Assembly (NCBI GenBank): GCA_047946875.1
Contig: CP181398.1
Location: forward strand, 777,041 to 841,040
DNA from: Candidatus Kerfeldbacteria bacterium
GTDB lineage: Bacteria > Patescibacteriota > Patescibacteriia > UBA10025 > JAHIVO01
Direction: 5' to 3'
DNA length: 64,000 nt
The notes below the pieces were generated by a model. The model was not told where the DNA came from. It ran no database searches and saw nothing but the letters and a program-made list of their open reading frames with translations. A program made the translations under genes and the position numbers. Positions within the stretch are counted from its first letter, which is position 1. Each line of letters begins with the position of its first letter. Shown piece after piece: positions 19,230-41,484 of the stretch.

Positions 19230-21701
19230 TTACTTATCATCTTCAGGTGCAGAAAGATTACCTAAATCTGACGGTAAATCAGGAATATTTTTATCCTTCC
19301 TTACTTTAGTTTTTTTTGCTTTATCACTCTTTTTATTATTTTTCTTTACTGCTTTTTTTGTAACTTTTTTTTCAGCTGGAGGATTAACATCATTTTTATC
19401 ATCATCATTTGGATCTTTATCCATTACCACTTCTTCATCTTCAAGATGTATCTGCACATCTTTTTCATTCAAATGTTTAACGACCGTTTCTTCTTCACCT
19501 TTAACTTTCTTGTTAAGTTCTGCCGTAAAATGAATTGATCCACGATATTTTCCAATTGAAACTGTTTTACTATGGAAACTAGAATATCCTGATTTAACTA
19601 TAACTAAATAGTATTTACCAGATGGCAACAATGCATTAAATTGACCTCGTGAATTAGTAACTTTAGTAGCCACAACCATGCCAGTTTCTACATTATAAAT
19701 TCTGATAATTGCCATCTCAATTGGGTCTTCTGTATCCTTATCTTTAACTACACCCAAAGATTTACCAAGCCTCTTATTAATCAATGCTCTTAAAGCTAAT
19801 AATACTCCATAAAGGGATAAGATAACAAAATTACTTGTCTTTGGCTGTATAATTAAAGTACCCCAACTCAATAAAGTACCTACTATTAATAACGGTATAC
19901 TTATTTTTTCTAAGATATGACCAATATAACTAATAAATCTTAACCATTTTAATCTGCCTGGCGATATTGCTTTCATATTTGGATCTAACGGAATATTCAT
20001 CGCAAAAAATCCACCCTCTTTACCTTCAATTTCTAAAGTGTCCCCACGATAAACGTTATCATACTGACTAACAGAATCTGTCTTTAAGACATGGGATGGA
20101 AAGACATAACCAGGAGAACTAGCTGTAACAAAATATTTTCCTTTATCAATAATAAAACCAAATCTACCTTGACTATCAGCAATCTGACTTTCTTTTAACT
20201 TATTAAACTCACGGGTAAATATCTTGATAATAGCTCTAGGAATAGGTTTACCACTAATACTATCAAAAACCGTACCCCAAGAACGACGTTTTTTTCCTAA
20301 CATTATTGGTACAAGCCAGAAATATCCAAACCTGAAGAATAAATATAAAATATTATATATATTTGAGGTAGTGGCTACAACCAAAGCAATTCCAGTGGCA
20401 GCTATAACTGCTGAAGTTGCCATCACTGGTGTAACAACTGTTTCTACTACCTCGACAATCCCTTCATTATTTTTCAAAGATTTTAATGCATCGCCAATTG
20501 CTTCTGTAAAATCACGAATAGGTGCAGGTATAATACTATTAAAAGTATCTACTATTTTTTCAGCTAAAGGTTTTGCTAGTTCATCTATCTCTTCAATTAT
20601 TACACCTGGCTTAGCCTCTGGATCTATAATAATAAAACTATTACTAGCGCTCGTAGAATTACTCGCATTATCATAAGCTATAGCAGTCACTGAATGACTA
20701 CCTATTACTAATTCTGGTAAAGTAAATGGCGTAGTATCTCCAATATTAATTCCTACTGGATTACCTTGATCTGTTATTAAATCATAATGATGAATTCCTG
20801 ATGTATCGTCAGTAGTTTCAAAACTAATACGAGGATTTGTAACGGTAGTCCTTTTACCATCAAGTAATGTGATAGGAAAATTATTTGGAGGGGTTGTATC
20901 AATTTGTACTTTAAAGTGACTCGTAGGTCCCCAACCATCTTGATTTTGTGCACGAATATGGAAATACCATACTCCATCTCCAGTACCAACAAAACTAGTA
21001 GAGCTATCCGTAGTATCTACTATTTTGTCAGGGATATTCTCAGCCTGATCATCAAATGAAAAGCTATAACCAACATTATCATTCTCAGTTGACCATGAAA
21101 AAGATGTATCTGGATTTGCATACCAGGAATTCTGATCTGGGTGAGAAGATGAAGAAATAGTAGGTGTAGTAGGTAATTCTAAATCTGGTTCTGGGGGCTC
21201 TTCACCTGGCTCAGCAATAACATAAGTACCAGAGCCTGTACCACTCAACAAATCAGTGCCAACTGTAGCAGCTTCGTTGGACAGAACCAACGCTCCACCC
21301 ATCGTCGCATTTGCCGTCCCAGCTGACTTAGTTCTAAAACTAATTGTAAGCACTAAACCTGAAGTTCCATTATATCCACCTGCCAGACCACCTGGTAACC
21401 CGCCAGCGAATGTAATAGTACCACTAATATTTGAATAATTTGGAATTACTGGCCATAAAGTAAAAATACCACTACTAGAAACATTTGTTACTTCCAACAA
21501 GTTGGTCGGAAAAGATACTGTAGCCTGAGCAGCATTCATCGACTGTCCTCCAGAATTTACATATAATCCTACATTAAAACTATCACCAATCTCATATGAA
21601 GAATTTGAAGGACTAAAAAATAGAGTAGCTGCCTCAGCAATGTTAGGAGCAAACAATAAACCAAATATTAATAATATAGCAACAAAAATCTTTTTTGCCA
21701 T
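19230..21701 (-). CDS. Membrane-anchored surface protein. Domain order: N-terminal signal peptide, cohesin-like domain, FN3/Ig-like beta modules, TM helices, two carboxypeptidase-regulatory-like (transthyretin-fold) domains, K/D-rich C-terminal tail.
   Basis: ATG at 21701 (MAKKIFVAILLIFGLLFAPNIAEA) lies 8 nt after a GAGGG motif. The ORF track starts 22 codons upstream. The cohesin-like signature SFNVGLYVNSGGQSMNAAQATVSFPTNLLEVTNV is present, plus CarbopepD_reg-like stretches GKPIPRAIIKIFTREF...DSQGRFGFIIDKGKYFVTASSPGY and GMVVATKVTNSRGQFNALLPSGKYYLVIVKSGY. Confidence 0.6.
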   Translation of the reverse strand: MAKKIFVAILLIFGLLFAPNIAEAATLFFSPSNSSYEIGDSFNVGLYVNSGGQSMNAAQATVSFPTNLLEVTNVSSSGIFTLWPVIPNYSNISGTITFAGGLPGGLAGGYNGTSGLVLTISFRTKSAGTANATMGGALVLSNEAATVGTDLLSGTGSGTYVIAEPGEEPPEPDLELPTTPTISSSSHPDQNSWYANPDTSFSWSTENDNVGYSFSFDDQAENIPDKIVDTTDSSTSFVGTGDGVWYFHIRAQNQDGWGPTSHFKVQIDTTPPNNFPITLLDGKRTTVTNPRISFETTDDTSGIHHYDLITDQGNPVGINIGDTTPFTLPELVIGSHSVTAIAYDNASNSTSASNSFIIIDPEAKPGVIIEEIDELAKPLAEKIVDTFNSIIPAPIRDFTEAIGDALKSLKNNEGIVEVVETVVTPVMATSAVIAATGIALVVATTSNIYNILYLFFRFGYFWLVPIMLGKKRRSWGTVFDSISGKPIPRAIIKIFTREFNKLKESQIADSQGRFGFIIDKGKYFVTASSPGYVFPSHVLKTDSVSQYDNVYRGDTLEIEGKEGGFFAMNIPLDPNMKAISPGRLKWLRFISYIGHILEKISIPLLIVGTLLSWGTLIIQPKTSNFVILSLYGVLLALRALINKRLGKSLGVVKDKDTEDPIEMAIIRIYNVETGMVVATKVTNSRGQFNALLPSGKYYLVIVKSGYSSFHSKTVSIGKYRGSIHFTAELNKKVKGEEETVVKHLNEKDVQIHLEDEEVVMDKDPNDDDKNDVNPPAEKKVTKKAVKKNNKKSDKAKKTKVRKDKNIPDLPSDLGNLSAPEDDK

Positions 21702-21726
21702 AATATCTACCCTCTCTCTTATATTT

Positions 21727-22881
21727 TTAATCTTCTTTTTTTGGTTGTGAGCGAACTTTAAATGCAAGAAATAATAGTAGTAAGATAATTATACTTATAA
21801 CTATTATTAAAAATAATGAATAAACTGTATCATCTCCAAAAAATGGACTCTTATTTTCAAATGGAACTATACCTAAATTTTTCTGTGTATAATTACCAGC
21901 TCGATCAAATGCAGTGACTGTAATAAGATTACTTCTACTTTGATCTTCTAAAATATATGGTGATGTGACATGGGTTGTAGATTTGTCACCTTCTTTAACA
22001 TCATAATAGTCAATACCGGAGCCTTTGTCAGTGGTAGAAAAAATTAAAATATATTTTCCATCATACAAAGTTGGTTCTTTTGAAATAACTGTATCAATAT
22101 CTAATGGTGCCTTACTATCAATCATAGCTCTCCTCTTACCAATCACTTCCCAATCTCCATCACCTATTTTTTCTTTCAATATAAAATAATATACTCCATC
22201 AGCTAAATCAGAAAAATTGACTTTACCGGTCGTTGATTCTCTATTATTATCAGGTTCTTCATCTGAATAATTACTCAAAATATAACTATAGATTGCATCT
22301 TTCTTTTGCTCCCACTCAACATTAAAATTATTATTTTTATACCAAGTACTCTCTTCTGGATGAGTAGAAGATTCAATATTAATAAATGTTGTATCGCTTA
22401 CACTAAATATTCCTGAAATTTTATTTAATTCTACCTCTGTCCCCAATCCATCATTTAGTAAGACTTTTGTACTTTCATTATCAAAATCTACTTCACCAAC
22501 ACCTGGAATTTTTGTTTTGAAAGTAATTGTTGCAATCTTACCATCTAATACCATGCTACCGCCGGGAATTCCGCCAGCTAATGAAATAATTCCCGCTGAT
22601 TCCTCAACAATCGGTTCTTTTATCCATAAAGTTAAAAAAGAGCCCCCACGTGATACTTTAACAACTTCCAATAAATCTGTTGGATATGTTATTGTTGTTT
22701 TTACCGCATTAATAATTTCTTGCTCACTATTCAAATGTATTTCAGCTAAAAAAGTTTCCCCTTTTGCAAATTCTTTTTGTACGGGATTTACAGAAATTAT
22801 TGCAGCCTGAGCTTGACTGAAAAATATTACACCAAAAATAATTAGTGGTAATATGATTAAAGTTTTTTTGAATGTAAACAT
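21727..22881 (-). CDS. Secreted cohesin-like domain protein with FN3/Ig-like module and a C-terminal TM anchor; paralog of the N-terminal part of the 19230-21701 gene
   Basis: ATG at 22881 (MFTFKKTLIILPLIIFGVIFFSQAQA). The track's 22908 is a TTG start. Cohesin-like signature EIHLNSEQEIINAVKTTITYPTDLLEVVKV...ISLAGGIPGG parallels the neighbouring gene. C-terminal hydrophobic SLFLIIVISIIILLLLFLAF is followed by KVRSQPKKED. Confidence 0.55.
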   Translation of the reverse strand: MFTFKKTLIILPLIIFGVIFFSQAQAAIISVNPVQKEFAKGETFLAEIHLNSEQEIINAVKTTITYPTDLLEVVKVSRGGSFLTLWIKEPIVEESAGIISLAGGIPGGSMVLDGKIATITFKTKIPGVGEVDFDNESTKVLLNDGLGTEVELNKISGIFSVSDTTFINIESSTHPEESTWYKNNNFNVEWEQKKDAIYSYILSNYSDEEPDNNRESTTGKVNFSDLADGVYYFILKEKIGDGDWEVIGKRRAMIDSKAPLDIDTVISKEPTLYDGKYILIFSTTDKGSGIDYYDVKEGDKSTTHVTSPYILEDQSRSNLITVTAFDRAGNYTQKNLGIVPFENKSPFFGDDTVYSLFLIIVISIIILLLLFLAFKVRSQPKKED

Positions 22882-22895
22882 AATATTATAACAAT

Positions 22896-23807
22896 TTATT
22901 CTGTCCAATAAAATAGCATGATACTAAAGTCAACAATATTTACTATACCATCACTATTAATATCTGCTCTTTCATTAGCAGGATTTGCTGTATTCCAATA
23001 AAATAATAAAATACTAAAATCAACTAAATTCACAAAAGTATCACAATTAATATCCCCAGGTAATGCGCCATCACAAATATTTGGCTCATCAGCCGTTACA
23101 TTAAATATAACACTTTTACTAAATTCTGAGACCGCATCATTTACAGGTTCTATGGCTTGAGCCTTTGCCTCATGAGAGCCTTCTGCTAAATCATCAGCAT
23201 CATATAACTGTATCCATCTACCATTTGTATCAGCACTGGCTATACTTACTGCAATATGTTGTTCTCCAGCCGCAGCCCCGACCACTGGTGATGTTAATGT
23301 TACATTTACTTCACTATCAGGCACAGTAGTCCCTGATAAAGTAATAGTTTCACCACTAGAAATATTGGTTTGATCAGCTTCGATTGTCGGTCCTAAAAAG
23401 ATACCGCTGATCGTAGTAGTAGTACCTGTAGTTAAGGTTAATGTAAAATTTGATTGTTTACCCTCTAAACCATCTTGATCAAGACCAATCACAGAAAAGG
23501 TATAAGTGCCTGGATCAATAATTGCAGAAACTTCAAAGATTGCCTGAGATGTTGTAGAAATAATAGACAAAATTGATCCATCCTGACTAAAAGTCACAGT
23601 AGCAGATGGATAAGCTATCCCTCGAAATACAACTGTAGTATCTGGATCTTCTAATGGAGGTTCAGAAGCAACTGTAGCTGTAACAATAACCTGCTGAGAA
23701 GATTGTGCATCTACATAAGATACAACAGAATATCCCGCGACCAATAAGATCAGCGGGATAATCAGATATACAAAAAATTTAATTAAGTTAGGTCTTCTTT
23801 TTTTCAT
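22896..23807 (-). CDS. Secreted Ig-like/beta-rich protein with a C-terminal type-I dockerin domain
   Basis: 303 aa. N-terminal signal-anchor. The C-terminus carries two calcium-binding dockerin repeats: GDINCDTFVNLVDFSILLFYW and ADINSDGIVNIVDFSIMLFYW (D-x-N-x-D-G-x-V-N-x-x-D-F). Confidence 0.7.
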   Translation of the reverse strand: MKKRRPNLIKFFVYLIIPLILLVAGYSVVSYVDAQSSQQVIVTATVASEPPLEDPDTTVVFRGIAYPSATVTFSQDGSILSIISTTSQAIFEVSAIIDPGTYTFSVIGLDQDGLEGKQSNFTLTLTTGTTTTISGIFLGPTIEADQTNISSGETITLSGTTVPDSEVNVTLTSPVVGAAAGEQHIAVSIASADTNGRWIQLYDADDLAEGSHEAKAQAIEPVNDAVSEFSKSVIFNVTADEPNICDGALPGDINCDTFVNLVDFSILLFYWNTANPANERADINSDGIVNIVDFSIMLFYWTE

Positions 23808-23811
23808 TCAC

Positions 23812-24810
23812 CTATTTTTTTGCTTTTTTTATTATCCAAGCGTTATACTTTTTAAACAAGAATATTAATAATAATATCCCAAATACAATTACTATAAACC
23901 AGACTAATAATAAACGCCATGGCATGACCCAAAAAGTAACAGTTCCCGTATCTGAAACTATTTGGCTAGTTCCCGCGGTAATACTCAGAGTTGCTGTGTA
24001 TTTTCCAAAAGCAAAATTATCTTTTTCATTTCCAAATTCTTGCCAAAAGTCTGACCAAAAATTACCTGATACATTATCAACATTACCTTTTTCCCAAACA
24101 ATATCATATTTTCTGGTTGATTTTGGTAAAGTAGCACCTTTACTTGCATTGAAATCCAAAGTATCTGTAGTCTTACCAAATAAATTATTAATTTCTACAT
24201 TACCAACCGGTTTCAGATGAACATTACCAGTATTATTAAATCTAGAAACAAATCCTACAGGCAATCTATTAAACATTTTTTGACCATCTTCTACTATAAA
24301 TTCACTGATTGATCCCTGCTCATTAACATCACCCTCTACACTGGCCAAAATCAATGTACCAATTTTGGAGGCAACTTTAACCTGACCTTCTTCTGGTGCT
24401 GCTGAAGTAAAAAATAATGCTGCATAGTGACCACCTGGATCTGCATTTATCGGAGGATTAATAATAACCGAGACTTCATACCTTTCTCCAGATTCAATAA
24501 CAATAGGTCCTTCTTCGACATTCATCCAAGTACTTAAACCTATAGACTCAGTATTAAAGTCAAAATCAGGTTGACCAGTATCATCTTTTGCTGTGAAACT
24601 TCTAGCCTCTGTATAAAGCTCTATTGTTTCAGATGTTTCATTAAATAACTTAATAACTGTATTTACAGCTTGACCAGGTGTTAGACCTAATTCTAAAGTT
24701 GGAGGAATTAATGTGATTGCTTGAGCGGATGGAGCGATCCCAAAACCTATAATTGCAATAGCAAAAATAAACGCTATATAAATAATTTTCTTCTTAAAAT
24801 GTTGAAACAT
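23812..24810 (-). CDS. Secreted beta-rich cell-surface protein with C-terminal TM anchor (CscA/DUF916-like architecture, tentative)
   Basis: 332 aa. Signal peptide ending SAQA; conserved core ...PGGHYAALFF...KIGTLILASVEGD...; C-terminal LLLVWFIVIVFGILLLIFLF followed by KKYNAWIIKKAKK. Clear paralog of 24833-25768. Confidence 0.5.
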   Translation of the reverse strand: MFQHFKKKIIYIAFIFAIAIIGFGIAPSAQAITLIPPTLELGLTPGQAVNTVIKLFNETSETIELYTEARSFTAKDDTGQPDFDFNTESIGLSTWMNVEEGPIVIESGERYEVSVIINPPINADPGGHYAALFFTSAAPEEGQVKVASKIGTLILASVEGDVNEQGSISEFIVEDGQKMFNRLPVGFVSRFNNTGNVHLKPVGNVEINNLFGKTTDTLDFNASKGATLPKSTRKYDIVWEKGNVDNVSGNFWSDFWQEFGNEKDNFAFGKYTATLSITAGTSQIVSDTGTVTFWVMPWRLLLVWFIVIVFGILLLIFLFKKYNAWIIKKAKK

Positions 24811-24832: not shown

Positions 24833-25768
24833 TTATTCTTGCTGTGGTGTCTCATTCTTACTAGATTTCTTAGACATTTTAATGATTAAAGCAATCAATA
24901 AAATTAATACTAGAATGATAACAATAACTATTACTATACCCGTAGTAGTCATTACCCAAAATTCAATAGCTTCCGTATCTGTTACAGTGCCGTCTGTCAT
25001 AGTCAATGTAGCTGTGAATTTACCAAAACCAGTAACATCCCAATTTGCAACTGCAAACTCTCTTACAGATCCTGCTAATATTGCACCTTTTTCGCTATTT
25101 ACTGCAATTGATTCAACGTCTTTACCAAACATATCTGTAATTACTACAGTACCAGCTGGTTTTATATGAGCTTCACCAGTATTTTTAAAACGTACTGCAA
25201 ATTTTACGGCACCATCAGAATAGTTTGTTTTATCTGAAGTAAAAGTAGCAATACTACCTGCTTCAGTATAATCTCCTGCTACAGTAGCCATGAATAGAGT
25301 ACCTAATTTTGACTCTATTAATAATTGACCGTCTTGTTGATCAGGTAATGTTTCATTAAAGAATACTGCTACATAATGTCCTCCAGCTGTTGCATTTGCT
25401 GGTGTATCAAAAGTCACAGTTACCTCTTGAGTTGCGCCAACTTTGATTGTAATAGGACCTTCATCAACATCTACCCAAGTAGCAATACCAGTTTGAGCAG
25501 CTTCAAAATCAAAAGCTGGTTGACCAGTCTCGCCCTCGGCAGTAAAATTGATTACTTCTGTTTCTAATTTTATCTCTTCTTGTGTGTCATTTTTTAGTTC
25601 TACGACTGCTACTGTCTTTTCTCCCGCCGTCAGATCAACCTCCATAATAGCGGGGGTAAGACCTAAAGCTGATACCTGTGAAGGTACAACCAGCAAAGCA
25701 GCGAAGAACAGAGTAGTGATTCCTAGAAAAATAGTTTTTTTAAACATATATTCTATTTTATTAATCAT
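24833..25768 (-). CDS. Secreted beta-rich cell-surface protein with C-terminal TM anchor; tandem paralog of 23812-24810
   Basis: 311 aa. AGGAGGGG Shine-Dalgarno upstream of the ATG at 25768. Collinear with the neighbouring gene (GETGQPAFDFEAAQTGIATWVDVDEGPITIKVGATQEV...AGGHYVAVFF...KLGTLFMATVAGD). C-terminal IVIVIVIILVLILLIALII followed by KMSKKSSK. Confidence 0.5.
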   Translation of the reverse strand: MINKIEYMFKKTIFLGITTLFFAALLVVPSQVSALGLTPAIMEVDLTAGEKTVAVVELKNDTQEEIKLETEVINFTAEGETGQPAFDFEAAQTGIATWVDVDEGPITIKVGATQEVTVTFDTPANATAGGHYVAVFFNETLPDQQDGQLLIESKLGTLFMATVAGDYTEAGSIATFTSDKTNYSDGAVKFAVRFKNTGEAHIKPAGTVVITDMFGKDVESIAVNSEKGAILAGSVREFAVANWDVTGFGKFTATLTMTDGTVTDTEAIEFWVMTTTGIVIVIVIILVLILLIALIIKMSKKSSKNETPQQE

Positions 25769-25835: not shown

Positions 25836-26852
25836 TTAAAATAAACCAGTTGTAACTAAGGTTACAGTGTTGGTATAAGTCCCGGCTTCAGTTGTACCAG
25901 CAATGGATGCCAAGAAACATAATGTAGTAGCATCAGTTGAAACAGCGCCAGTTGCAGCAGCAAAAGTCTGAGGAGAAGCAGTTAATGCTGTAGCATTTGA
26001 TGTAGTTCCTGTATCAGCACAAGATGTTGGACTCCAAATACCTATCGTATTACCTGAATCTGAAGATGAAGCACCAAATTCTTCTGTACCAGCAACGATA
26101 GTACCGCCAGCAGTATCAGAAATAGTATCAGAAGCAACTGAAGTTAATGTATTATCGTAATATACTGTAGAACTATATCCATTTGCAGCATTAGTAGTAA
26201 CTGTTGAAGTAATACCATCTTGTGAGATCAAGGAAGCTGATAATGTCCCAAGATCAATAGTATTGGCACTTAAAGCTACTGTAATTGTTGGTTCAACATC
26301 AGCCGAAACAACTACCTGATCATCAGCTATAATATCTACAGCTACTTGTTGACTATCAATTACTGCCTGAGCAGCAGTTCTAGTCTGAACGGTAATAACT
26401 CCAGTAGTACCGGTAGTTGGTGTACCAAGAGCACCAGCTCCTGAATCAGTTATTAAAACACCGTATTCAGTGGAGGCAGTTAAATTAGTAACCCCTGTAA
26501 TAGTTAGAGTATCTGGTGTACCAGCACAAGTGGCAACTAATGTACCTGGCAATGCATTTGCACCATAGGTTGTACTACCAGCAGCAATAATAGTGTCAGC
26601 TGTGCGACACCATAAACCATTATCAGCAGCCGGGAAAATAATATGCACCTCAGCCTCAGTACCACTATTTCCAGCTGGGACAGTAAATACGATATTATGA
26701 CTAACTCCGCTAGTCAAACTTTGTTTTTGTCGATTCATATGATCCTCGACTGTTTCCAATGATTCTGCTTTTGCAATTTGTGCTGGCAATAACATTACCA
26801 TAACAAAAATCGCCATAAACATTACCATGGACATTTTTTTGAGTAATTTCAT
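25836..26852 (-). CDS. Secreted T/S/G/A-rich surface protein whose C-terminal ~150 aa are homologous to the C-terminus of the 4784-aa giant protein (WxL-like cell-wall-binding domain, tentative)
   Basis: 338 aa. Signal peptide MKLLKKMSMVMFMAIFVMVMLLPAQIAKA. C-terminal TIDLGTLSASLISQDGITSTVTTNAANGYSSTVYYDNTLTSVASDTISDTAGGTIVAGTEEFGASSSDSGNTIGIWSPTSCADTGTTSNATALTASPQTF... aligns residue-by-residue with the giant protein's C-terminus. Confidence 0.6.
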   Translation of the reverse strand: MKLLKKMSMVMFMAIFVMVMLLPAQIAKAESLETVEDHMNRQKQSLTSGVSHNIVFTVPAGNSGTEAEVHIIFPAADNGLWCRTADTIIAAGSTTYGANALPGTLVATCAGTPDTLTITGVTNLTASTEYGVLITDSGAGALGTPTTGTTGVITVQTRTAAQAVIDSQQVAVDIIADDQVVVSADVEPTITVALSANTIDLGTLSASLISQDGITSTVTTNAANGYSSTVYYDNTLTSVASDTISDTAGGTIVAGTEEFGASSSDSGNTIGIWSPTSCADTGTTSNATALTASPQTFAAATGAVSTDATTLCFLASIAGTTEAGTYTNTVTLVTTGLF

Positions 26853-26969: not shown

Positions 26970-29900
26970 TTAATATAAACTTGTAGCAACTATTGTAATA
27001 GTAGAAGTATAAGCTCCTGCATCAGTTAAACCGCTAATAGAACCTAATATACATAATTCTGTTTGATGAGTGCTAACAACACCTGTGGCCCCTGCAAAAG
27101 TCTGAAGTGAGGTCGTTAAAGCGGTAGCATTCGATGTAGTCCCCGTATCTGCACAAGAAGTAGGACTCCAAATACCAATATCATATCCAGATCTCGATGA
27201 AGATGCACCATATTCCTCTGTGCCAGCTACGATAGTCCCTCCTGTAGTATCAGCAATCGTATTACCTATTGAAGTCAATGAATTATCATAATAAACCGAT
27301 GCTTGATATCCATTGGACGCATCAGTACTTACTGTCAGAGTCACTCCGTCCTGACTTACCAACGACTCTAATAATGTACCAAGATCAATACTGTTTGGAC
27401 TCAGGGATACTGTCATACCTACGAATAACCAACAATCGTTATTTTGAGAATTTACATTTGTCCCACCGGTAGCATCTATAGTATCTCCTCCACAAGCATA
27501 CGAATCTTGAACATCAGTATAAGTAACTATCTGCGTACCATCACTAGTCAGATTCCATTGAGTACCTGGAGTTGATGAGCGTAAAGTAACTAAGTTTCCA
27601 GAGGTGCCATTGAAACTTACGTTATTAAAAGTATAAGTACTACCCGCATTAAATTCTAATTGGGTATTGGCGGTATCAGCCGTGAAATTATTATCAACAT
27701 CAGCGGCTGCCGCAAAATCAACATCCGGATCAGAAGCGCCAGCATTTGTAATTGTAAGATTATAGAATCTATCGGAAGTACCAGTCATTTGACCCGATAA
27801 TATTTGCTGAGAAGAACCGTCTAGATAGACTGTACCGGACTGATCAGTGAAATTATCATTATTAGTCCAATCTCCCGCAAGATATATTGCATTGTCCTCT
27901 CCACTTTTTACATCTAGAGTACCACCGGTTATTAATAAATCATTATTTATATCAAGAATGGATTCAAGGGTAAAGGTAATATTATTTCCCGTATCATCAA
28001 AAGTAATATCATTGAAGTCGTCTGTAGTAGCGCCGGTAGAATCTATTGTCGGTGATCCGCTTGTAGCATCAAATGTTATAGTACCCGATCTGCATAAAAA
28101 TATATCATCATTATCCCAGCTTCCGCCAACTGTGATCGCATTATTTTCACCACTTACCGCATCCAGATGACCGTTTGTAATTGTAACGTTGTTAAGCACA
28201 ACTAACGGATCTTCTACTTCAACAATTAAATTATAAGTGCCAGCACCGTCATCTATAACGAGATTATAGAGTGAGCCAGTACCAGCGGTAATAAGATCAC
28301 TGGTTATATCACTCACAGAAGATGGTATATTAAAGGTTAAAGTAGAACCGACATTCGTTCCAGCGCTATTTAATAATGAAGCGCCTGACTGTAAATCAAA
28401 CTTACCATCTGTATTCATCTGTGTGCCATCTGTTTCTACATCATCATCAACATCCAAAGTACCGCCACCCGAGCCAGCATCAGTGGAAATAGTAATGCCA
28501 CCCAAACCAATATCAAGATCATATCCATTTGTATTAAGTATATCACCATCATTAATAGTTAGAGTTTTAGCTAATAAATCACTGGCTAGATCAGTGGTAT
28601 CCGGAGAAGTACCTATTTCCAAATTACCGACATCCTGCTGTGGTGAAGTATTGTCCGTAAAGGTCAAATCCCCATCCAGTATTAATTCTCCTGTTCCAGC
28701 GGTAGCGTTATTAAATGTCGTTCCGGACGCCAAGGTAAAATTACCTGCAGCATTGAGATTGCTATCTACTTCCTGCGTAAACACACCCGTATCGGCTATA
28801 TCAAACGTACCATTCACATCCATTGCATCAGCGCTAGCAACACTGCCAGTACCTGACACCTTAAAATTCTGCAATGTTTGGCTGGCTGAAGTAACGGTCT
28901 TTGTCGCGCCGGTCATGTCAATTGTCGATGTTCCAGCAGTGACTGTACCACCGGTCATATCAAGATTACCAGCCATGGTATGAGTAGCATTTGCCAGGGT
29001 AACAGAGCCTGAAAGAGTTAAATTTTGTAATGTCTGTGAGGCGGAAGTAAGGGTGCCAGTGCCATTCATTACCAAAGTATTACCTGAAGTAGCCGTGTAG
29101 GTTCCGTCAGTAAAATTCACATTACCGGAAACAGTCCAAGTTCCAGTGCCTGAGGTAATTATTTCAGATCCATCATCCGCACCGATGAAGTCAAAATCTC
29201 CCTCAATATCAAATGCTGGATTATTCGTCACGCCGGCAAACGTAACATTCTGTGTGCCGTCAGCTATGATATATAAATTACCGTCAATATCCTGGGTTGC
29301 CGTTGCAAGCGGAGTAATCGTGTACGGCGTGCTGTTATCATCATTAAATATTTCCACATCACTGCCATATGTGCGCGCGGGCATAGTCGTGGTATTGCCA
29401 TTTGATGTATCAAAGCGCACCAGTGAACTTAATGTACCTGCAGTAGGTATCGTGGTACCGGAATTAATAGTCAGACGGCCGGCGCCAGAAATCGTACCGT
29501 CAAGCGTGAAACCGCTACCGGTCCATGTGACCGTTCGGCTTGTTTCGATAGCAAGTGAATCTCCCGTATCAACATCAAGTGTATTGCTTACTAACGGATC
29601 GTCAGCCCCCGTATCAGTATCAACGGTGATCGTATTCGTCGTTGCACCGTCTCCAATGGTGAGATCATAAAATGTAGTGTCGCCCAAACCATTAATATCA
29701 TGGCTTGCCACGTTTTCACCGGTAAGTGTTACACTACCGGTCCCCGGGGTAAAATTTCCACTGTTGTTTGTCCAGTCACCCTGTACTTCCATTGCTTCAC
29801 CTTGTGCATCAAAATATATACCACTATCAAGTGTGTAGTTTCCCTTCAACACCAATAATTGCTGGCTCGCGTCATTACTCAATAAACACGGCGTACCGAC

Positions 29901-32900
29901 CGTACCGCGGCTGATTTGCAGATTATAAAATTCAGGCGCATCATCACTCCACTGGTACACCTGGCCTTGAGCAGAACTCGCGCCTGACGGATCATCAATG
30001 ACTATAGTCCCGCCGGTAACCGTCGTGGTAGTAAGTGGTTTCTCATTGTACACGATAAACGAACGGCCAGTTAATGTACCGCCGGTCATATTAAAAGTTA
30101 CTGTCTCTCCGCCGTCATTATGCCGCGCGAGTTCAATGGCTCCATCCGCAACAGTACTCGCCCGCACCGTTCCACCCGCCAGCGTGATTATCCCCTGATT
30201 CAAATTAATGTTAGTACCAACATCCACGCTGCCGTCATTGAAATTAGTAATCTGCGAATTACTTCCGCGCATGTTTAACGCACCCGTAACATCAACATTA
30301 GCTCCTGTATTGAAATTGAGAGTACCGGCTTCTTGCCAAATATTGCCGGCAACCGTCACTGCGCTTGCTATTGTTGCTGTACCACCATTAACATAAAAAT
30401 TATCCTTAACATCCACGGTTCCGCCACTAAACGAATTGGTGCCGCCGTTTATTATTAAGTCTTCTGTCGTACCATTACCAATCGTGAGTGTACCCGCGGT
30501 AACATTTATATTCCCGGCAGATGTTATATTATCTCCATTTACTGTTGCGTCGGCACTCACATTAAGTGTTGCATTCGCATCAATGTCTATATCCAGACCA
30601 ATAATCGATGTTGCCGTATCAAGATGAACTGTGGCATTGTCATCAATGTGCAGATTACCGCCAGTTGCGTCAGTGGTTACCATACCGCCAGGATCAAATG
30701 TATCACCGGTCCACGCATGCAGCTCCATGCCCGACTCTGTTGTCAGCGCGCCCGCAATAACCGCATACCGTATGCCAGCATCAGCATTATCACCGGTCAA
30801 TAACTTAGCGTTTGTCATTGGCCCGGCATTCTCATGTCGAACAATCATCCTATTTTGGTATAGATTAAGTCCGGAAATATTCGACGATATGTCAGCCGCT
30901 AGTGTTGCTGTAGTCGCATGTGGTGTTTCGCTATTATCAATATAGAGCACTATAGGATCGCCACCAGCTGTTGGATCTGTTGCCGGGATAGTGAACGTAC
31001 CACCTGCACTATCGCATTCATACTCGGATGCAGTTCCGCCGTTTGTTGCCGCGTGGACTGTCAATGGATCTGCGGAACAGTCATACACACTTATACCATC
31101 ATCACTGTAAATCGTTCCGGTCAACGTAATACCATCAAATATCCAGCAGTCGTTATTTCCGGAATCAGTGTTGGTGCCATTTGACGCATCAATCCAGTCG
31201 CCGCCGCACGCGTACGAGTACTTTACATCAATGTATGATACATCGGTCTGCGTGCCGGTTACCACCAAATTCCAGTCGCTGGTCGTAGAACTTTGGAACG
31301 TTATTTCATTTCCGACACCTGAAGAACCGGCCCAGTTGATATTTGGAAACGTATACGTCGATCCCGCTTCATATTCAACAGTAACGCCCGCTGTTGTAAT
31401 TGTATAGTTATTTTCGGTTTCAACGGCTGCTCCGAAATCAACAGTTCCGCCACTATTGGTAATAGTTAGGTTATAAAAATCAGAAGAACCTGTCATAGTG
31501 CCTGACAATGACTGAGTAGAAGAACCGGCCAAAACAACAGTTCCATTGTTATCAGTAAACGTGCCATTATTGGTATAGTTACCATTAATATCAAGTGTTG
31601 AACTACTGGAAGCAGATAGCGTGGTAGCAGTATCAATACTCACGTCTCCACTCACTACTAATGATGGATCGTTGGTATTCAAATCTACCGTGGTTGCGCC
31701 GGTACCATCTTGGATAAGTATTAAATCACCAGAGATTGGATACGACCCCGATGCGGCTGTAATAGAATTTGATGAATTACTTCCATACAACTCCACATCC
31801 CCTCCGTACGTACGGGCATCAAATGTAGTATTGGCAATATTACCAGCACTGGCATCATAGCGGACAATACTATTGATCGTTCCTCCCGTGCCAGGACCAG
31901 CGGATGTATCAGTAAACCTAAGTGTGCCAGCTCCTTCAACAGTACCTAAATTAGCAAAAGTTGAGCCGGTATGTGTTACTGTACGACCAGCGCCAATCGA
32001 GAGTGTACCACCCGCACCAAAATTTCCATAAGCACTACTGATTGTGAAATCCGTATTTATAACCGAGATAGCTACATCAGACGCCGAATCAAGTTTGAAA
32101 TCATAAAAAGTTTCCCCGCCAACATCTATAGTATTGTCAGCGCCATGCATTATAACTTCTCCGGTCCCTTCTATTAAATCTGTCAGATCGGCCTTAATAT
32201 ATAGATCACCATAAACACTTATATCGCCACTGATATCATAGGTGCCACCACTATCCGGATCGAGCGAAAGATTATCAAAACTTCCACCCCCCGACACAGT
32301 TACTGAGCCAGTATTAGTAAATTTAAATGTTGAATCCTCTGTCGTTTTATTAACTATAACCATACTTGTTATTGGTGTACCACTTCCTGACATTTCCCAT
32401 GTCTTAGCGCCACCTGCTGCAGCTGAAAGTTTAGCAAACCAAACATCGTCCCCTGCTCCAGCACACGTATCCCTTGCTAATGTATTTGTTATCTTGATAT
32501 CACCACTACCCGTAGCTGACAGTATTCGATCTCCACTACACGCCCCTATAATATCAAAATATAAATCATAAAATGTCCACGTACTACTATTGCCACCAAT
32601 ATTACCTGCAGCGGGCAGCCCAACAGTTACTGTCCCACCGGTCATTGTGATAACGCCATCACCTGTAATATCCCCGCCGTTGGCGGTAAGATCGTTTGAA
32701 CCGGTCAGTGTCGTGCCGGTACCAACGGTGACATCACCGTTTGTAGTCAGCGCATCAGCTAAGGTAATGGTGCCGGTACCGGATGTCTCAAAATCATACA
32801 GAGATTTACCCGCCGCGGTGAGTGAGGGAGTAACACCGTCCATTACCAAAGTATGCCCAGAAGTGGCTGTAAATGTATCACAATTAGTAAGGTCTACGTT

Positions 32901-35900
32901 ACCCTCAATGTTCCAGGTTCCAGTGCCGGTATTAATCGTGTTAGTAGACGCTCCGCAGGAGAAATTGCCACCAACGTCTAAACTGACATTATTATCAGCA
33001 CCATCAATCGTTACGCTGTTAGTCCCGTCACCAATTGTTAGGTTATTATTTATATCATTAGCGAGAGCAGAAGCATACTCAAATGTGTATGATGGTGAAC
33101 CTCCTGACGGTATTAATTCTAAGTTATAGTAAGATCCTCCAGATCCATCTCTGGCAATGTCTGTATCCCCAGTACCGGTGTACTGAAAAGTAGAAGTATT
33201 TCCTATTAACCTCCCCTCGTTAAAAAAAGGCATAGTCTCATCAGTAGTACCAGATCCTGAAAGAATCCATGTTTTTTCACCGGCATCCAATGTATGAAAT
33301 CGTTCTATTACCTCACAAAAATCCCAGGTTGTGATCAGCTGATTGGTAATGGTCATACTGCCAGTCCCAATAGCCGTCGTAGTATATTCACCACATGGAA
33401 GTTGCGTAAAAGAGAGATTATAAAATGTCCAGTTGCTGTCTCCGCCTATAGTCCCATCCGTAGACAAGGTTACCGTACCGCCGGTCATATTGACCGTACC
33501 ATCACCAGTCAGGTTACCACCGTGAACAACCAGAGAGCCAGTACCTTGCACGGTGGCACCGGTATCCACATACTGATTACCACCAGTGCCTGACGTGGTC
33601 ACCCCACCACCCGGATCATAGGTATCACCAGTCCAAATATGCAATTCAAATTCTGAATCAATAGTCACGTTATTTGAATCAACCTTAAACTTAATATCGC
33701 TATCACCTGTATCCCGATCGCCTGACTCAAGATTGGTGTTGGTAATAGACGCTCCAGTATCATTCCTGACAATGACTGCGGCCGCGTACACATCAACATC
33801 AGCTGTATCAGTTCCGTCAACCTTGAATGCAGTTGTTCCTTCATAGGTGCCGTGATCATCCAGGTAAATAGTGACAATATCTCCGCTTGAGGATGCAATA
33901 CTGCCGACTGAATAATCCCCATTGCCATCCGTAGTACCAAAATTCATATTATTACCATTAACATTCACCTGAACTAATATGCCAGAACCGGCATTCGTTG
34001 ACTTATTCTCCTGATACACCGTGCCACCAATGGTAATAATATCGCTAAAAAGCCAATTCGTATTGTTTCCACAATGAGTATTAGTCCCGTCATCAGCATC
34101 AATTTGAAAACCAGTATCTGTTGCATCAGACCGCGACACATCCACATACGAAACCACACTAGTATTAGCTACATCCAGAAGCCATGTGCCGGAAGTAAGG
34201 TTTGAATTTCTAAATACAATATCATTACCGGAAGAACCAGTCCAATCAATATTAGTGAACGCATATGTAGATCCAGAATTATATTCCACTTTTACGTTAT
34301 CATTAACGGTAAAGGTGCCGGTAGCTGTAGCTGCGGCCGCAAAATCAATACCAGGGGTAAATGAAGTAGCACAGCCAGAAACACTTCCAGTGGTATTAGT
34401 AATGGTCAGGTTATAAAAATCAGAGGAACCGGTCATCGTACCCGATAAGGTCTGTTGCACGGTACCGGCCAAAACGACTGTCCCGCTGTTGTCAGTAAAC
34501 GTGCCGTTATTGGTATAATCGCTCTTTAAAGTTAGGCTAGTACTGCTTGGCGCGGAAAAAATCGTATTAACGCCAATAGTGATAGTCTTGGTAAAATTAA
34601 TAGTTGGATCGTTTGTATTCAGATCAAAAGTAGTGGCTCCAGTTCCGCCCTGTATCAGTTCCAAGTCTCCATAAACATTATATGTACCCGCTGCTGATGT
34701 GACCGTATTAGAAGAGTTATTACCATATATTTCAACATACAGATAATCACGAGCTGACATCGTTTGGCTGTTGCTTGACGAATCAAAACGCACGATAATA
34801 TTAGTTGCAAATGCTCCTGTTGTTGGGAATGCGGCTGATGGTTGGTAGACCAAAGTGCCATTACCCATCACGTAGCCGTCGAAAGTAAATGATCCCGTAC
34901 TCGTTACAGTCAAAGAACGATCTATACTAATATACAAAAAATCATTAGTGTTAACGTCAAGCGTACCGGTAACGATAGGATCATCAGTGCCCTCTATTGA
35001 TACTGTACCTGCAGATCCATCACCAATAGTAAGATTATTAAACGTGGTATCACTTGAGCCATTTATTGCAGGAGAGCCTGTCATGGTAACGGTACTTGTA
35101 CTTGCTGTAAAGGTGCCATTATTATCCCAATTACCATCCAAGCTATATGTATTAGCTCCATCTGAGGCAAGTGTGCCATCAATACTAATAGTAACATTAT
35201 GCGCGTTCATCGTTCCTGCGGAATCCATAGTTAATGTATCATCAGCCAAAATATCTATGGTGTCGTCAGCATACGCACCATCTTCATCCACATTCAATAC
35301 ACCCGCATTGGCAGTATGCATGATATTGCCATTTTGATCATTATCATAAGAGCCCAGCTGGGTAACAGTTAATGTCACTCCAGTATCAGCACTTCCAACT
35401 GACAATACGTTCTGATTTAGTACCATGCCGGTAATATCATCCGCACCGTCATACTCTGTAACAGCAGTAGATTGATCCCCATCTGTCGCTGTGTCAATGA
35501 ATACGGTTATTACTTCTCCTCCTGACAAAGCTGGGTCCGTATCAACATTCCAGGCACTTGCGCTTATTACGAAACTATCAGCTTGCAACACACCATTGAC
35601 TGCAATTTTCACCGTACCGGAAGAATTTGATGAACCTGCAACATTTGTATTAGATGAAGGAAAAGTCCAAGCAGTATTATTGCTACAGTCGGTGTTAGTA
35701 CCGTCATCAGCATCAATATCCACACCGGGAGTAGCATCAGACCATGACACGTCCACATAGGAAACAACACTTGAGTTGGTCACATCCAAATCCCAAGCGG
35801 ATGAGCCCGTTGAACCTTTGAAGTAGATTTCATTTCCAGATGAACCCGTCCAATCAATATTAGTAAATGCGTAGGTTGATGTGGAATTGTACTCTACGTT

Positions 35901-38900
35901 TGCATTGTCATTAACCGTGAAAGTACCTGTAGCCGTAGCAGCATCAGCGAACACAATGCCAGCAGTAGTAAATGATGCGCAGCCCGTGACAATTCCGGAT
36001 GTATTTGTGACAGTCAAATTATAAAAAGATTCTGAGTCTGATGTTATGGTTTGTGTTGATGAACCATCCAAGACAACCGTATTTCCACTGGTGGCAGTAT
36101 ATGTCCCGTCTGTAAAATCAATGGCTCCAGATACAGTCCACATACCTGTTCCAGAAGTTATAATCCCAATTCCAGAACCACCACCACCATAAGCTAATAC
36201 ACTTGTAATATTTACTGTTGGGTTGTACGTTCCGCCGTCAAGAGTAATATTTTGCGTATTTTGCGCCGAGACATACAAGGAATTCGAAAAATTTAGAGTT
36301 TGACTTGCACCAGTACCTAACATAACTGTACGTGCATTGGTGGTGCTATTATTGTACACCTGAACCTGATGGCCATACGTACGCTGTGACAATATTTGAT
36401 CATTAAACGTAGCGTCCATCCTGAGCGACGATGAAAGCGTTCCAGTCGTAGGGAAAGCTGATGAAGGCTGATATGCAAAAAGTCCACCTCCTGAAATCGT
36501 ACCATCAAGCGTGAGTGAACCCGCATTACCAAGCGTAACAATATTTGAAACGCCAAGTGATAATGTATCACCCGAGTCTATATCAAACGTACCCGTAACA
36601 GTTGGATCTTCAGATCCACCCACTGTTACTGTCCCTGCGGTCCCATCACCAATAGTAAGATTATTAAATGTAGTATCACTAGCGCCATTTATAGAAGAAG
36701 TTCCTGTCATAGTGACTGTACTTGTATCAGCTGTGAAGGTACCGCCATTAGTATAATCTCCTGCAATACTTATAGCACTAGATCCTGCAGTAAACACGGC
36801 ACTACTATTAATAACTAAATCCCCTCCAATAGAAAGGGCTTCATTAGTGGTACCAAATGTTTGAGAACCGTTAATAGTTAAATCATTCGCAACATTGAAT
36901 CCCAAAGAATTCACATCAATAGTCGTAGTATCTGCAATCACAATATTATAGAAACTTACACCGGCCTTACGAATATCAATTCCTCCTACTGAATTATCAT
37001 CATCAATAATAAAAGTTCCCCCTGATATAGTGCCCCATCTAGCCAGCGCTGTATTCGACAAATTTATCTCCTCTGTGGTAATTGTACCTGATCCGGTCAT
37101 GGTAAAATCAAGACCTGTGTCATTTGGAGCCATATAAAAATATCCGGAAGGACCTACAGAATGAGTACCACCATTGAAATTGAAATCACCTTCATTTATT
37201 ACCCAGTATCCAACTTCCGTAACTACAGACCCTGCATTCAGATTTAATACACTTGTTGCCCCGTCAAGAGTAACTCTATCTAGAATATCCACATCAGCGC
37301 TACCACTTATTGTTGCCGTACCACCAGTCAATATAAAATCATCACCAATATCCGTGGTACCACCACTGATATTCACCGCACCTGATGTCATATTTAAATC
37401 TTCTGTAGTGCTATTACCAATTATAAAAGTTCCAGCGGTATGATTCAGAGTCCCTCCACTTACCAAAACTTCATTAGCTTCTACGATTGTAGAATTTTGT
37501 ACATGAAGCGTACCTCCGGATGGAACATCAATATCTCCAGCAATAACATTACTAATCGTATCAAGATAAGCAGTCCCTCTGACATCAAAATCTCCAGTTA
37601 CACTAGTCGTAGTAATCCTACCATTTGGATCAAAAGTATGACCAGTATATACAAAAAGTTGAATCCCTGTCTCCACAACCAAAGTATCAGTTATTGCATC
37701 TATAGCATCATAAAGCATATCTACTGAGTTTTGGTCATTATCATATGCATCCATATCGTCAACATTTATACTGGTTCCTTGCTCATGCCTCACCATTACC
37801 GTATTTTGATATATTCTCAAATTATCTCCGGTAACTATATCCCCTCCGTCACTAACAGTAACCGTATTACCCAATATTGATCCGCCGTCAATATAAAATG
37901 TCAGCTGGTCTCCTGCGCTGGTAGTAACTCCGGTAATGGAAAAATTACCACTAGAATCGGTTGCATCACAATCTCCGCCCGCAGTCGCATTTACAGCCAC
38001 ACAAACACTAGTACCTGTAGTAATTGGGGTTCCTTCAGTATCATCAGTATAAGCTATACCATCAAAATCATAGCCACCGCCACCACCGCCACACGATGTA
38101 CATTCAGCTAATATAAAATTAGTTTGAAGTGGATCATGCGCGGGGGCATTATATCCAGACAATGTAATATCATGCTTATGACCAGCTGTTGCAAATTGAC
38201 TACCTGCGCTTGCACTACCATCTATACCTGCTGAATCTCCTGAAGTCCCAACTGTATTTGAATGAGCAACTCCAGCACTACCACTAGTAGTACCTGAGCT
38301 ATCTGCTGTTTGGATATATCTGTTTTGATAAGGACTAGTGTTAGAGATAGTAGTCCAACCAGTTGGTGGGGTTCCGTCAAATAGAGCAATCATCCCAATA
38401 GGAACAGATGGTGGTGTACCATTTTGCTCATATAATTTAAGAGTTACATATTCAGGTACTGATGTAGCACTAGCCGTAGTAGTAGGAGTGCTAGGTGCAG
38501 CATGAGTATGAACTATTGCATCATGGACATTGGGAGTAATTCCTGAAAATACACCGACACTACCTGAACCAGCGTTAAGAGACCCCCAGGTAACTCCGTG
38601 TGTATGAGTATCACTTCCACCGGTCGTATGTGATGAGTCAAGTTTCACTAAGCGACTATCGGCCGCTGAAAAACGTACCCAAGGACTAGATGGTTCTGAT
38701 CCAGTCTTAAAAAAAGCGAAAGCATCAAGCGGTATAGTGCTTGGCGTGGAATCAAGTGAATCATAACGATAAAGATAATATGTATAATGTGCCGGATTAT
38801 TATCAGCAGCTGCCACAGTAGTAGTATTAGCTGTATGAGTATGAGCTCCTGTCGATATCAACGTACATCCTCTTCCACATATAGTATCTGGACCCGTACT

Positions 38901-41270: not shown

Positions 41271-41484
41271 TTTTTTTGGGTGCTTATTTTTTTTACCTAG
41301 TTTAAACACTTTAAATATATGCAAAACTTTTTTATTATTTTAGCTTTGCTTAAGTTAGCAAAAAATTTAACTTAACTTAACAAACATAACAAAACTATTA
41401 TATAATATTATTATGATTTTGTCCAATAAAAATAACTCTCATCATCTTTATAAATGATTCGAATGATTTAAATTATGATTAAAC

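Follow-up and report, generated by a model that had tools for sequence, protein, structure and literature searches.

The locus described here lies in a 64,000-nucleotide (nt) stretch of DNA from a Candidatus Kerfeldbacteria bacterium (GenBank assembly GCA_047946875.1, contig CP181398.1, positions 777,041–841,040, forward strand); this whole stretch is called the window, and coordinates are positions within it. The window is AT-rich (GC content 0.30–0.46) and contains a cluster of seven minus-strand genes, arranged head-to-tail with gaps of 4–117 nt. In the order of transcription, these genes encode (i) a giant surface protein of 4784 amino acids (aa) and proposed tip adhesin, with pilin C-domain matches at its C-terminus (26970..41324), (ii) a 338-aa shaft pilin, recognised by an NCBIfam NF058581 match and a linker motif (25836..26852), (iii) a 311-aa chaperone-like protein with a WxLIP_PGBD match, a signal peptide, two beta-rich domains and a C-terminal transmembrane (TM) helix (24833..25768), (iv) its 332-aa paralogue, also with a C-terminal TM helix (23812..24810), (v) a 303-aa dockerin protein with a Pfam Dockerin_1 match, a donor-strand motif and two domains resembling immunoglobulin (Ig) or fibronectin type III (FnIII) folds (22896..23807), (vi) a 384-aa, single-pass membrane cohesin protein, identified from fold matches, Pfam matches of its orthologues and a TM helix (21727..22881), and (vii) a polytopic membrane cohesin protein from an 845-aa open reading frame (ORF), identified from its paralogy to the preceding protein, a cohesin family hidden Markov model (HMM) and CarboxypepD_reg domains (19230..21701). 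The dockerin gene and the two cohesin genes thus close the 3' end of the cluster. No terminator-like site was found inside the cluster on the minus strand, a result of little weight given that the scan counts were no higher than those of shuffled controls.

Two of the gene boundaries are shorter than their ORFs. The first cohesin ORF (393 aa) spans 21727–22908, and its likely ATG at 22881 gives the 384-aa protein also found in the NCBI record; the 845-aa ORF spans 19230–21767, with a probable ATG at 21701. An original prediction, made from the letters of this DNA, had described adjacent cohesin-like and dockerin genes at 21727–23807 and had placed the cohesin ORFs upstream. The 845-aa gene in fact falls outside that span, and in the direction of transcription both cohesin genes are downstream of the dockerin gene.

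The 303-aa protein ends in a double dockerin repeat, consisting of the near-identical segments DINCDTFVNLVDFSILLFYW and DINSDGIVNIVDFSIMLFYW. The repeat pattern quoted in the original prediction does occur twice, but the first repeat carries T instead of G: the two read DINCDTFVNLVD followed by FSILLFYW and DINSDGIVNIVD followed by FSIMLFYW. This is the tandem duplication of ~22 residues that is typical of dockerins, in which each copy consists of an EF-hand-like Ca2+ loop (D-x-N/D-x-D-x6-D) and a helix behind it. Pfam Dockerin_1 (PF00404) is matched above its curated threshold (32.4 bits against a gathering score of 22.9, E=1.1e-7), and the best PDB sequence match of the protein is 2y3n_B, a cellulosomal type I dockerin (E=3e-5). 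The module occupies aa 245–303 (nt 22899–23075); in an AlphaFold2 model its helices lie at aa 261–269 and 291–302, with predicted local distance difference test (pLDDT) values above 90. Across 30 homologues the Ca2+-loop residues are invariant or nearly so, and the helices are nearly so; indeed, no other module of this protein family is as strongly conserved as the dockerin (0.78, with 16 of 59 columns invariant). The model places two Ig domains ahead of it, at aa 58–137 and 148–238, and there is no TM segment after the signal peptide. Separately, a nearly invariant pair of cysteines, C245 and C255 (aa 245–255, nt 23043–23075), lies on either side of the beginning of the first Ca2+ loop and may form a disulfide clasp.

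Both downstream ORFs start with a cohesin module. The strings on which the original prediction had based this claim, NAVKTTITYPTDLLEVVKV in the 393-aa ORF and NAAQATVSFPTNLLEVTNV in the 845-aa ORF, are present, and fold matches and a family HMM agree with it. The AlphaFold2 model of the 393-aa ORF (pLDDT 87) contains a beta domain at aa 27–165 that has the nine-stranded, flattened beta-sandwich (jelly-roll) form of cohesins. The original prediction had allowed that these modules might turn out to be generic Ig or Big domains; instead, the best PDB fold matches are cohesin modules. A Foldseek search with the model returns 6kge_A, 6kgc_A, 1g1k_A, 4ums, 3ul4_A and 4dh2_A at the top (E 3e-10 to 1e-7, target TM-score 0.70–0.77, root-mean-square deviation about 3 Å), and the matches include C. 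acetobutylicum CohA2, C. cellulolyticum Coh, OlpA, OlpC, ScaB and C. perfringens GH84C Coh-FN3. Sequence searches are less decisive. A Pfam scan, proposed with the original prediction as a check, recovers the dockerin above threshold but the cohesin below it: Cohesin (PF00963) is matched by the 393-aa protein at 18.9 bits against a threshold of 24.1 (E=0.0018). The 845-aa protein has no Pfam cohesin match at E<=0.1, a single-sequence PDB search with the 393-aa protein returned only an irrelevant weak match (5vky_A), and the cohesin family profile finds 4ums_A weakly (E=0.088). At the level of the family, 23 of 26 orthologues of the 393-aa protein match Cohesin at E<=0.01 (best 2.8e-8), and many carry a precomputed PF00963 assignment.

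In the 384-aa protein, a signal peptide is followed by the cohesin (nt 22387–22803), two Ig-like stalk domains, a TM helix (nt 21748–21831) and a short basic tail, so that the cohesin is the module farthest from the membrane. The cohesin is also the most conserved module of its family, its invariant residues gathering in the motifs SFLTLW, GGIPxGS and LNDGxGT. The 845-aa protein is a paralogue, with 30% BLASTP identity over 350 aa (E=1e-30) spanning the cohesin together with the pair of Ig-like domains behind it; the family cohesin HMM matches its aa 46–185 with E=7e-41. It consists of a signal peptide, the cohesin (nt 21213–21632), Ig-like domains, a hydrophobic block at ~aa 437–497, a CarboxypepD_reg domain, a TM hairpin (aa 615–663), a second CarboxypepD_reg domain (nt 19479–19754) and a K/D-rich tail. 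The description of this protein as polytopic, with CarboxypepD_reg domains and a K/D-rich tail, holds up: CarboxypepD_reg scores 64.5 bits in two stretches, there are several hydrophobic segments (at least four or five), and the tail is 80 aa long. Each cohesin protein of the window has a single cohesin. In public annotation of the Candidatus Kerfeldbacteria genome, 100% identical proteins are named 'dockerin type I domain-containing protein' and 'cohesin domain-containing protein'; the modules themselves are therefore already known.

The remaining four genes give the cohesin–dockerin pair its context. A 2026 study by cryo-electron microscopy of Candidatus Mycosynbacter amalyticus filaments introduced the Pam pilus (Troman et al., bioRxiv 10.64898/2026.03.03.709456; NCBIfam NF058581, NF058579). 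Its pilins comprise an N-domain, a linker strand and a truncated-Ig C-domain, and polymerise by donor-strand exchange; PamT, the tip protein, consists of the C-domain only, PamC and PamD are PapD-like chaperones on a C-terminal TM helix, and PamR, the proposed terminator, starts with a strand, continues with two RbmA-like FnIII domains and carries a TM helix at its C-terminus (Troman et al., bioRxiv 10.64898/2026.03.03.709456). The same paper makes no mention of cohesin or dockerin. In the window, the 338-aa protein, judged by its sequence, follows the pilin plan, with a signal peptide, an N-terminal beta domain, a linker or donor strand (DDQVVVSADVEP, nt 26289–26324) and a C-terminal acceptor domain. 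NCBIfam NF058581 (CPR_Pam_pilin_C) is matched over model positions 3–148 of 148 (E=1.1e-10), at 41.8 bits and below the cutoff of 55. Among 38 syntenic orthologous pilins, 35 match this model (best 1e-36), and 21 match the PamT model.

The giant protein ends in the same acceptor domain: its last ~148 aa (nt 26973–27416) are 70% identical to pilin aa 190–338. The family HMM of the pilin C-terminal domain (CTD) matches giant protein aa 4637–4783 (E=1.3e-37), a match that default HMMER filters miss and that was detected with --max. The linker motif is absent before the CTD of the giant proteins; in other loci, '...DCW..' is directly followed by the CTD. The giant protein therefore has the form of a Pam tip, namely an acceptor C-domain without a donor strand. 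The 311-aa and 332-aa proteins are 39% identical (E=5e-66), and each carries a signal peptide and a C-terminal TM helix (aa 278–296 and 300–318, respectively); the 332-aa protein has the same position in syntenic loci. Pfam WxLIP_PGBD (PF06030) is matched by the 311-aa protein below threshold (E=0.0019, 18.7 bits against 27.3) and by 20 of 42 members of the chaperone-like family (best 2e-9), and the family profile matches Enterococcus faecium EfmWxLIP1 in the PDB (9i25_C, 9i1y_A; E=2.4e-6). An NCBIfam scan of the chaperone-like family gave no match to a Pam chaperone model, and the corresponding scans of the dockerin and cohesin proteins and families gave no match to a Pam-specific model. By homology and architecture, both proteins would be chaperone-like analogues of PamC/PamD and of WxLIP.

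The opposite end of the giant protein is unusual. Within aa 1–155 (40870–41324), a helix-turn-helix (HTH) domain of the BldC/MerR/excisionase-like type lies at aa 29–76 (E=5e-6), followed ~50 aa later by a TM segment and a possible V-Q-A|D cleavage site. Giant proteins of three other loci (L048, L071 and L073) carry a cytoplasmic leader of 80–100 aa ahead of a TM segment. It is odd to find a DNA-binding-like domain in the leader of so large a surface adhesin. In addition, GC content reaches 0.42–0.46 at 28000–36000, inside the giant gene, against 0.30–0.35 across most of the window; this rise probably reflects the composition of repeats rich in G, T, S and N.

The dockerin protein is tied to the pilin by a shared sequence. 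In every shaft pilin, the motif DDxVxV(T/S)ATV(D/P)P stands directly before the CTD. The same motif stands directly after the signal peptide in dockerin proteins; the window copy is SQQVIVTATVASEP (nt 23658–23699), with the core QVIVTATV, or QQVIVTATVA with its neighbouring residues. A position-specific scoring matrix (PSSM) trained on pilin linkers only, and counting scores >=12 bits, finds it in 23 of 85 dockerin proteins, all but one at aa 26–49, and in 2 of 2728 unrelated ORFs. By visual inspection, V-x-V-(S/T)-A-x-V follows the signal peptide in many more loci than the PSSM finds. Conservation extends to the N-terminal strand of the dockerin proteins, in which V40, A44, V46 and P51 vary little or not at all. 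In the AlphaFold2 monomer of the 303-aa protein, by contrast, aa 29–57 have no secondary structure and pLDDT is below 50 over aa 32–44. A segment that is conserved yet predicted to be unstructured would behave as expected of a donor strand.

Long-form relatives of the dockerin protein give this resemblance a history. Eight of them consist of a Pam pilin N-domain (E down to 1e-39), a linker strand (e.g., ...DTVQVTATVPSPTPP...), two Ig domains and a dockerin. Because the long forms carry the pilin N-domain before the same strand, the N-terminal strand of the 303-aa protein is homologous to the pilin donor strand. From this arrangement the dockerin-protein family appears to amount to a pilin in which a stalk and a dockerin have taken the place of the acceptor domain; no acceptor domain is present in the 303-aa protein. 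We consider it probable that the dockerin protein is a strand-donating subunit of the pilus.

The tandem Ig part was compared with the PDB, where V. cholerae RbmA appears at ranks 5–7 and with eight chains in the top 50; RbmA is the structural neighbour also reported for PamR (Troman et al., bioRxiv 10.64898/2026.03.03.709456). In an exhaustive profile search with the strand-Ig-Ig part, the top 150 representatives comprise 112 small proteins, of which 109 end in a dockerin, and giant repeat proteins; none of the 150 is a TM-ended, PamR-like relative. As a separate observation, the tandem Ig module of the dockerin protein is repeated 8–46 times in 38 giant proteins (1500–6800 aa), none of which has a dockerin.

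To place the cluster among other genomes, relatives of the dockerin protein were sought in one genome per species, 80 loci were fetched, and iterated HMMs were run on all of their ORFs. Relatives occur in at least 552 genomes. The informatively titled ones are metagenome-assembled genomes of Patescibacteria; the titles of many others are generic or unreliable. The order giant protein with pilin CTD, pilin(s), one or two chaperone-like proteins, dockerin protein and two to four cohesin genes is found in most of the 80 loci, and in the loci of two distant cohesin orthologues (L001 and L002). With adjacency counted from domain coordinates, a cohesin domain starts less than 700 nt from the dockerin stop codon in 75 of 76 distinct loci (median 86 nt), the one exception being a frameshifted dockerin gene. 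A chaperone-like gene is directly upstream of the dockerin gene in 61 of the 76 loci, and a pilin CTD gene lies at most 4.5 kb upstream in 36 of 55; the misses for both are mostly in the most divergent lineages. A gene of ~800 aa, orthologous to the 845-aa gene, stands at the same position in 14 loci. It is thus very probable that the cohesin–dockerin pair belongs to the pilus operon.

Two further features of these loci were recorded. Firstly, in three loci (L015, L019 and L028) a further pilin gene and chaperone gene stand as a pair downstream of the cohesins, or additional cohesin genes lie upstream, which points to modular duplication of the system. Secondly, apparent cohesin–dockerin fusion proteins in Paceibacteria-type loci were rejected, the Ig domains being shared and the dockerin not; there is hence no Rosetta-stone fusion.

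Whether dockerin and cohesin bind each other is a separate matter from their co-occurrence. The original prediction had described them as a cognate pair encoded side by side. The adjacency stands, and its conservation in 75 of 76 loci makes the pairing plausible, but the binding itself goes beyond what gene order can establish. An alternative reading is that there is no mutual binding: the dockerin would bind the cell wall, an S-layer or a host surface, the cohesin folds would be distal Ig-like domains, and adjacency would reflect co-regulation. The sub-threshold Pfam score of the window cohesin is in keeping with this reading. So is wider experience with such modules: Peer et al. reportedly found in 2009 that non-cellulosomal cohesin-like and dockerin-like modules lacking known partners are widespread. 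Against it stand the near-universal adjacency across deep lineages of the candidate phyla radiation (CPR), the finding that conservation peaks in the dockerin and the cohesin within their respective proteins, and the nature of the best fold matches, which are structures of type I cohesins determined together with a bound dockerin. We regard the absence of mutual binding as very unlikely.

A different alternative concerns what the cohesins would hold. The original prediction had proposed that the polytopic cohesin protein could serve as a membrane scaffoldin. In a related form, the membrane cohesins would be mini-scaffoldins displaying dockerin-bearing cargo, with the 303-aa protein as one cargo or adaptor that plays no part in pilus assembly. 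The modules are genuine, single-cohesin anchors of C. thermocellum (OlpA and OlpC; 3ul4_A and 4dh2_A) are among the fold matches, and two to four cohesin genes per dockerin gene leave room for ligands encoded elsewhere. What is found in the window is nevertheless not a scaffoldin system, in which several cohesins would be accompanied by a set of dockerin enzymes: each protein has one cohesin, and the sole dockerin of the 64 kb is on a protein that has no catalytic domain, bears the pilin donor strand and, in its long forms, a whole pilin N-domain. Moreover, the pair holds a fixed place in the pilus operon, at its 3' end, in nearly all loci, and 109 of the 112 small representatives share the strand/Ig-Ig/dockerin layout rather than presenting diverse cargo domains. 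The scaffoldin proposal is not supported by these findings, and the display of cargo seems to us unlikely.

The reading that we favour, with moderate confidence and on sequence and model evidence, is that the dockerin protein is the terminating, basal subunit of a Pam-type donor-strand-exchange pilus and is docked into membrane cohesins. Under this reading all components would be exported by the Sec pathway. The giant adhesin would be placed at the tip, since it ends in an acceptor domain and has no donor strand. The 338-aa pilins would be added beneath it, each inserting its linker strand DDQVVVSADVEP into the acceptor domain of the preceding subunit, and the two membrane-anchored, WxLIP-like proteins would hold subunits as chaperones during growth of the shaft. 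Finally, the dockerin protein would cap the last pilin with its own donor strand and end growth: it can donate a strand and cannot accept one, so that nothing can add beneath it, which makes it the candidate for the last, cell-proximal subunit. Its two Ig domains would act as a spacer, and its Ca2+-type dockerin would plug into the cohesin of the single-pass 384-aa protein, the polytopic 845-aa protein or both, as the membrane anchor. The function of PamR would thus be split in two, between a strand-Ig-Ig-dockerin protein and a cohesin-Ig-Ig-TM protein.

The cohesin proteins could also do more than anchor. According to a further alternative, they, and above all the 845-aa one, would be an usher-like or regulatory platform that transiently recruits the dockerin terminator or chaperone–subunit complexes; pilus length or release would be controlled in this way, with the cytoplasmic CarboxypepD_reg domains and charged tail coupling the platform to the cell interior. 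The CarboxypepD_reg domains are predicted to be cytoplasmic by positive-inside reasoning from hydropathy: both are flanked by basic positive-inside motifs and accompanied by the long K/D-rich tail. The second cohesin proteins of other lineages carry a conserved cytoplasmic tail motif, the presence of several cohesin genes per locus suggests more than a passive anchor, and the published Pam model is without dedicated trans-envelope machinery, such that the role is vacant. Set against this, none of these proteins resembles an usher pore, the 384-aa protein is only a stalk and a TM helix and so fits a passive anchor, and the topology assigned to the 845-aa protein comes from hydropathy only. We judge such a platform improbable, to much the same degree as the display of cargo.

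The tail motif just mentioned was seen in Paceibacteria-type loci (L032–L083; e.g., L033:12952–14637). There, the last cohesin protein is ~560–620 aa long and ends in the conserved cytoplasmic tail ...IEYFDxKPGLSxxEKxxRDxLxxxLxxSEKxIxKEIxDIEKEL, which stands where the 845-aa protein has its K/D-rich tail.

Several observations weigh against a cohesin-docked basal terminator. Both window proteins on which it leans fall short of curated cutoffs, the cohesin in Pfam (18.9 against 24.1 bits) and the pilin in NCBIfam (41.8 against 55). No upstream pilin gene was found by HMM in about 19 of 55 loci, these being the more distant ones, and some dockerin proteins of more distant loci have a different N-terminus. 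The RbmA-like matches of the Ig domains are low-TM-score, tandem-Ig matches among many generic ones. With two to four cohesin genes per dockerin gene, a simple one-to-one anchor leaves the excess unexplained, and conserved adjacency alone is no proof of physical interaction. Lastly, the N-terminal leader and TM segment may keep the giant protein membrane-bound.

On the 3' side of the cluster, a signal peptidase I gene (TIGR02227, E=4e-43; 18058–18708, minus strand) lies ~520 nt downstream, followed by a histidyl-tRNA synthetase gene. The peptidase gene has a promoter-like site of its own, and L001 and L002 do not share the arrangement. Farther on, 5308–15252 (minus strand) encodes a second giant protein, of 3314 aa. 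At its N-terminus is a pilin-like conjugal-transfer domain of the Mbov_0395 family (35 bits, below the cutoff of 40); OmpL47-type beta-barrel repeats are also present, and F510_1955 glycosylhydrolase-like repeats (E=1e-20) lie at the C-terminus. The protein may be a giant enzyme or adhesin anchored by a domain resembling a pilin of type IV secretion systems.

The bacteria of the CPR, to which Candidatus Kerfeldbacteria belong, are ultrasmall and live attached to hosts; to our knowledge, very little is known about the construction and attachment of their surface filaments. The locus suggests a second, phylogenetically broad solution besides the TM-anchored terminator, namely a pilin-like terminator that docks into membrane cohesins. 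We found no description of a cohesin–dockerin pair within a pilus operon in the searchable literature, and its proposed place at the root of a Pam-type pilus, a new role for known, annotated modules, is well supported by the comparison of sequences. If this is true, the pair serves outside polysaccharide degradation, as a load-bearing pilus root; few non-covalent bonds between proteins are known to be mechanically stronger than those of cohesin with dockerin. The pair is also compact, with a dockerin of 59 aa and a cohesin of 140 aa, and the model predicts that SQQVIVTATVASEP complements the pilin C-domain. More tentatively, and with less confidence than we place in the window itself, many Patescibacteria may carry giant-adhesin-tipped, donor-strand pili that are held by a non-covalent, Ca2+-dependent cohesin–dockerin joint in place of a TM helix or sortase, with the polytopic cohesin protein linking the root to the cell interior and the cohesin paralogues acting as alternative sockets.

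Among known systems, the closest fold match, the cohesin-FnIII of C. perfringens GH84C (PDB 2w1n; E=3e-10), aligns over both the cohesin and the next Ig/FnIII domain. It likewise belongs to a cohesin–dockerin assembly outside cellulosomes, but one that links secreted, toxin-like enzymes and has neither a membrane anchor nor a link to pili. The cellulosomal anchors of C. thermocellum, which carry type I or II cohesins (OlpA, OlpC and SdbA), share with the window the principle of a cell-bound cohesin on a stalk capturing a dockerin partner, and type I dockerins with a dual binding mode share the two near-identical Ca2+-loop/helix repeats. They differ in three respects. Firstly, these anchors are attached by surface-layer homology (SLH) domains, whereas here a TM helix is used. 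Secondly, the cellulosomal partner is an enzyme or a multi-cohesin scaffoldin, whereas here it would be a pilus subunit, with one cohesin per protein and no glycoside hydrolases. Thirdly, the dockerin recognition positions are hydrophobic here (L/I-V) and Ser-Thr in the cellulosomal type.

In chaperone-usher pili, the logic of the terminator is the same: in P pili, PapH, a strand-donating subunit that cannot be extended, ends polymerisation at the base. The likeness reaches the donor strand, in that the motif V-x-V-T-A-(S/T)-V-D-P is almost the CfaB strand of dscCfaE (2hb0). The pilin profile aligns the linker to this fused strand, 'NITVTASVDPVI', a weak resemblance, and the pilin linker consensus V-x-V-T-A-T-V-D-P almost equals the N-terminal donor strand of CfaB in the CFA/I fimbriae of enterotoxigenic E. 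coli. The similarity may be convergent. In contrast to chaperone-usher pili, there is here no outer membrane, usher or periplasmic chaperone, and the terminator has a dockerin for attachment.

The WxL clusters of Firmicutes encode a small WxL protein, a large WxL protein and WxLIP, a DUF916-DUF3324-TM protein whose two Ig-domain, TM-anchored architecture is predicted to insert a strand into the shared C-domain (Hassan et al. 2023, PMC10599100). The gene logic is that of the window: a small and a large protein share a C-domain and are accompanied by a TM-anchored partner. At the family level the chaperone-like proteins are detectably homologous to EfmWxLIP1, and this shared chaperone ties the Pam pili of the CPR to the WxL clusters. 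The window pilin itself has no WxL Pfam match at E<=0.1; its C-domain lacks the dual Trp-x-Leu and has a single Trp, in 'IGIWSP'. WxL proteins, unlike pilins, are described as peptidoglycan-bound surface proteins and not as filaments, and WxL clusters are without cohesin or dockerin genes. The homology of the chaperone-like proteins nonetheless suggests that Pam pili and WxL systems are one superfamily.

The nearest relative of the locus is the Pam pilus, to whose pilin family the orthologous pilins belong as a group. Judged by sequence, both have in common the pilin plan, an acceptor-only tip, TM-tethered, two-domain chaperone-like proteins and a putative strand-donating, tandem FnIII/Ig terminator; both are also without an usher and restricted to the CPR. 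The Pam pilus is known from Saccharimonadia or Microgenomatia, whereas the present locus comes from a lineage of the Kerfeldbacteria/Paceibacteria type. At the tip, the single-domain PamT contrasts with a giant of 4784 aa, which carries about 4600 aa of additional adhesin. At the base, PamR has its own C-terminal TM helix, whereas the terminator proposed here ends in a dockerin and the TM helix is found on the separate cohesin proteins.

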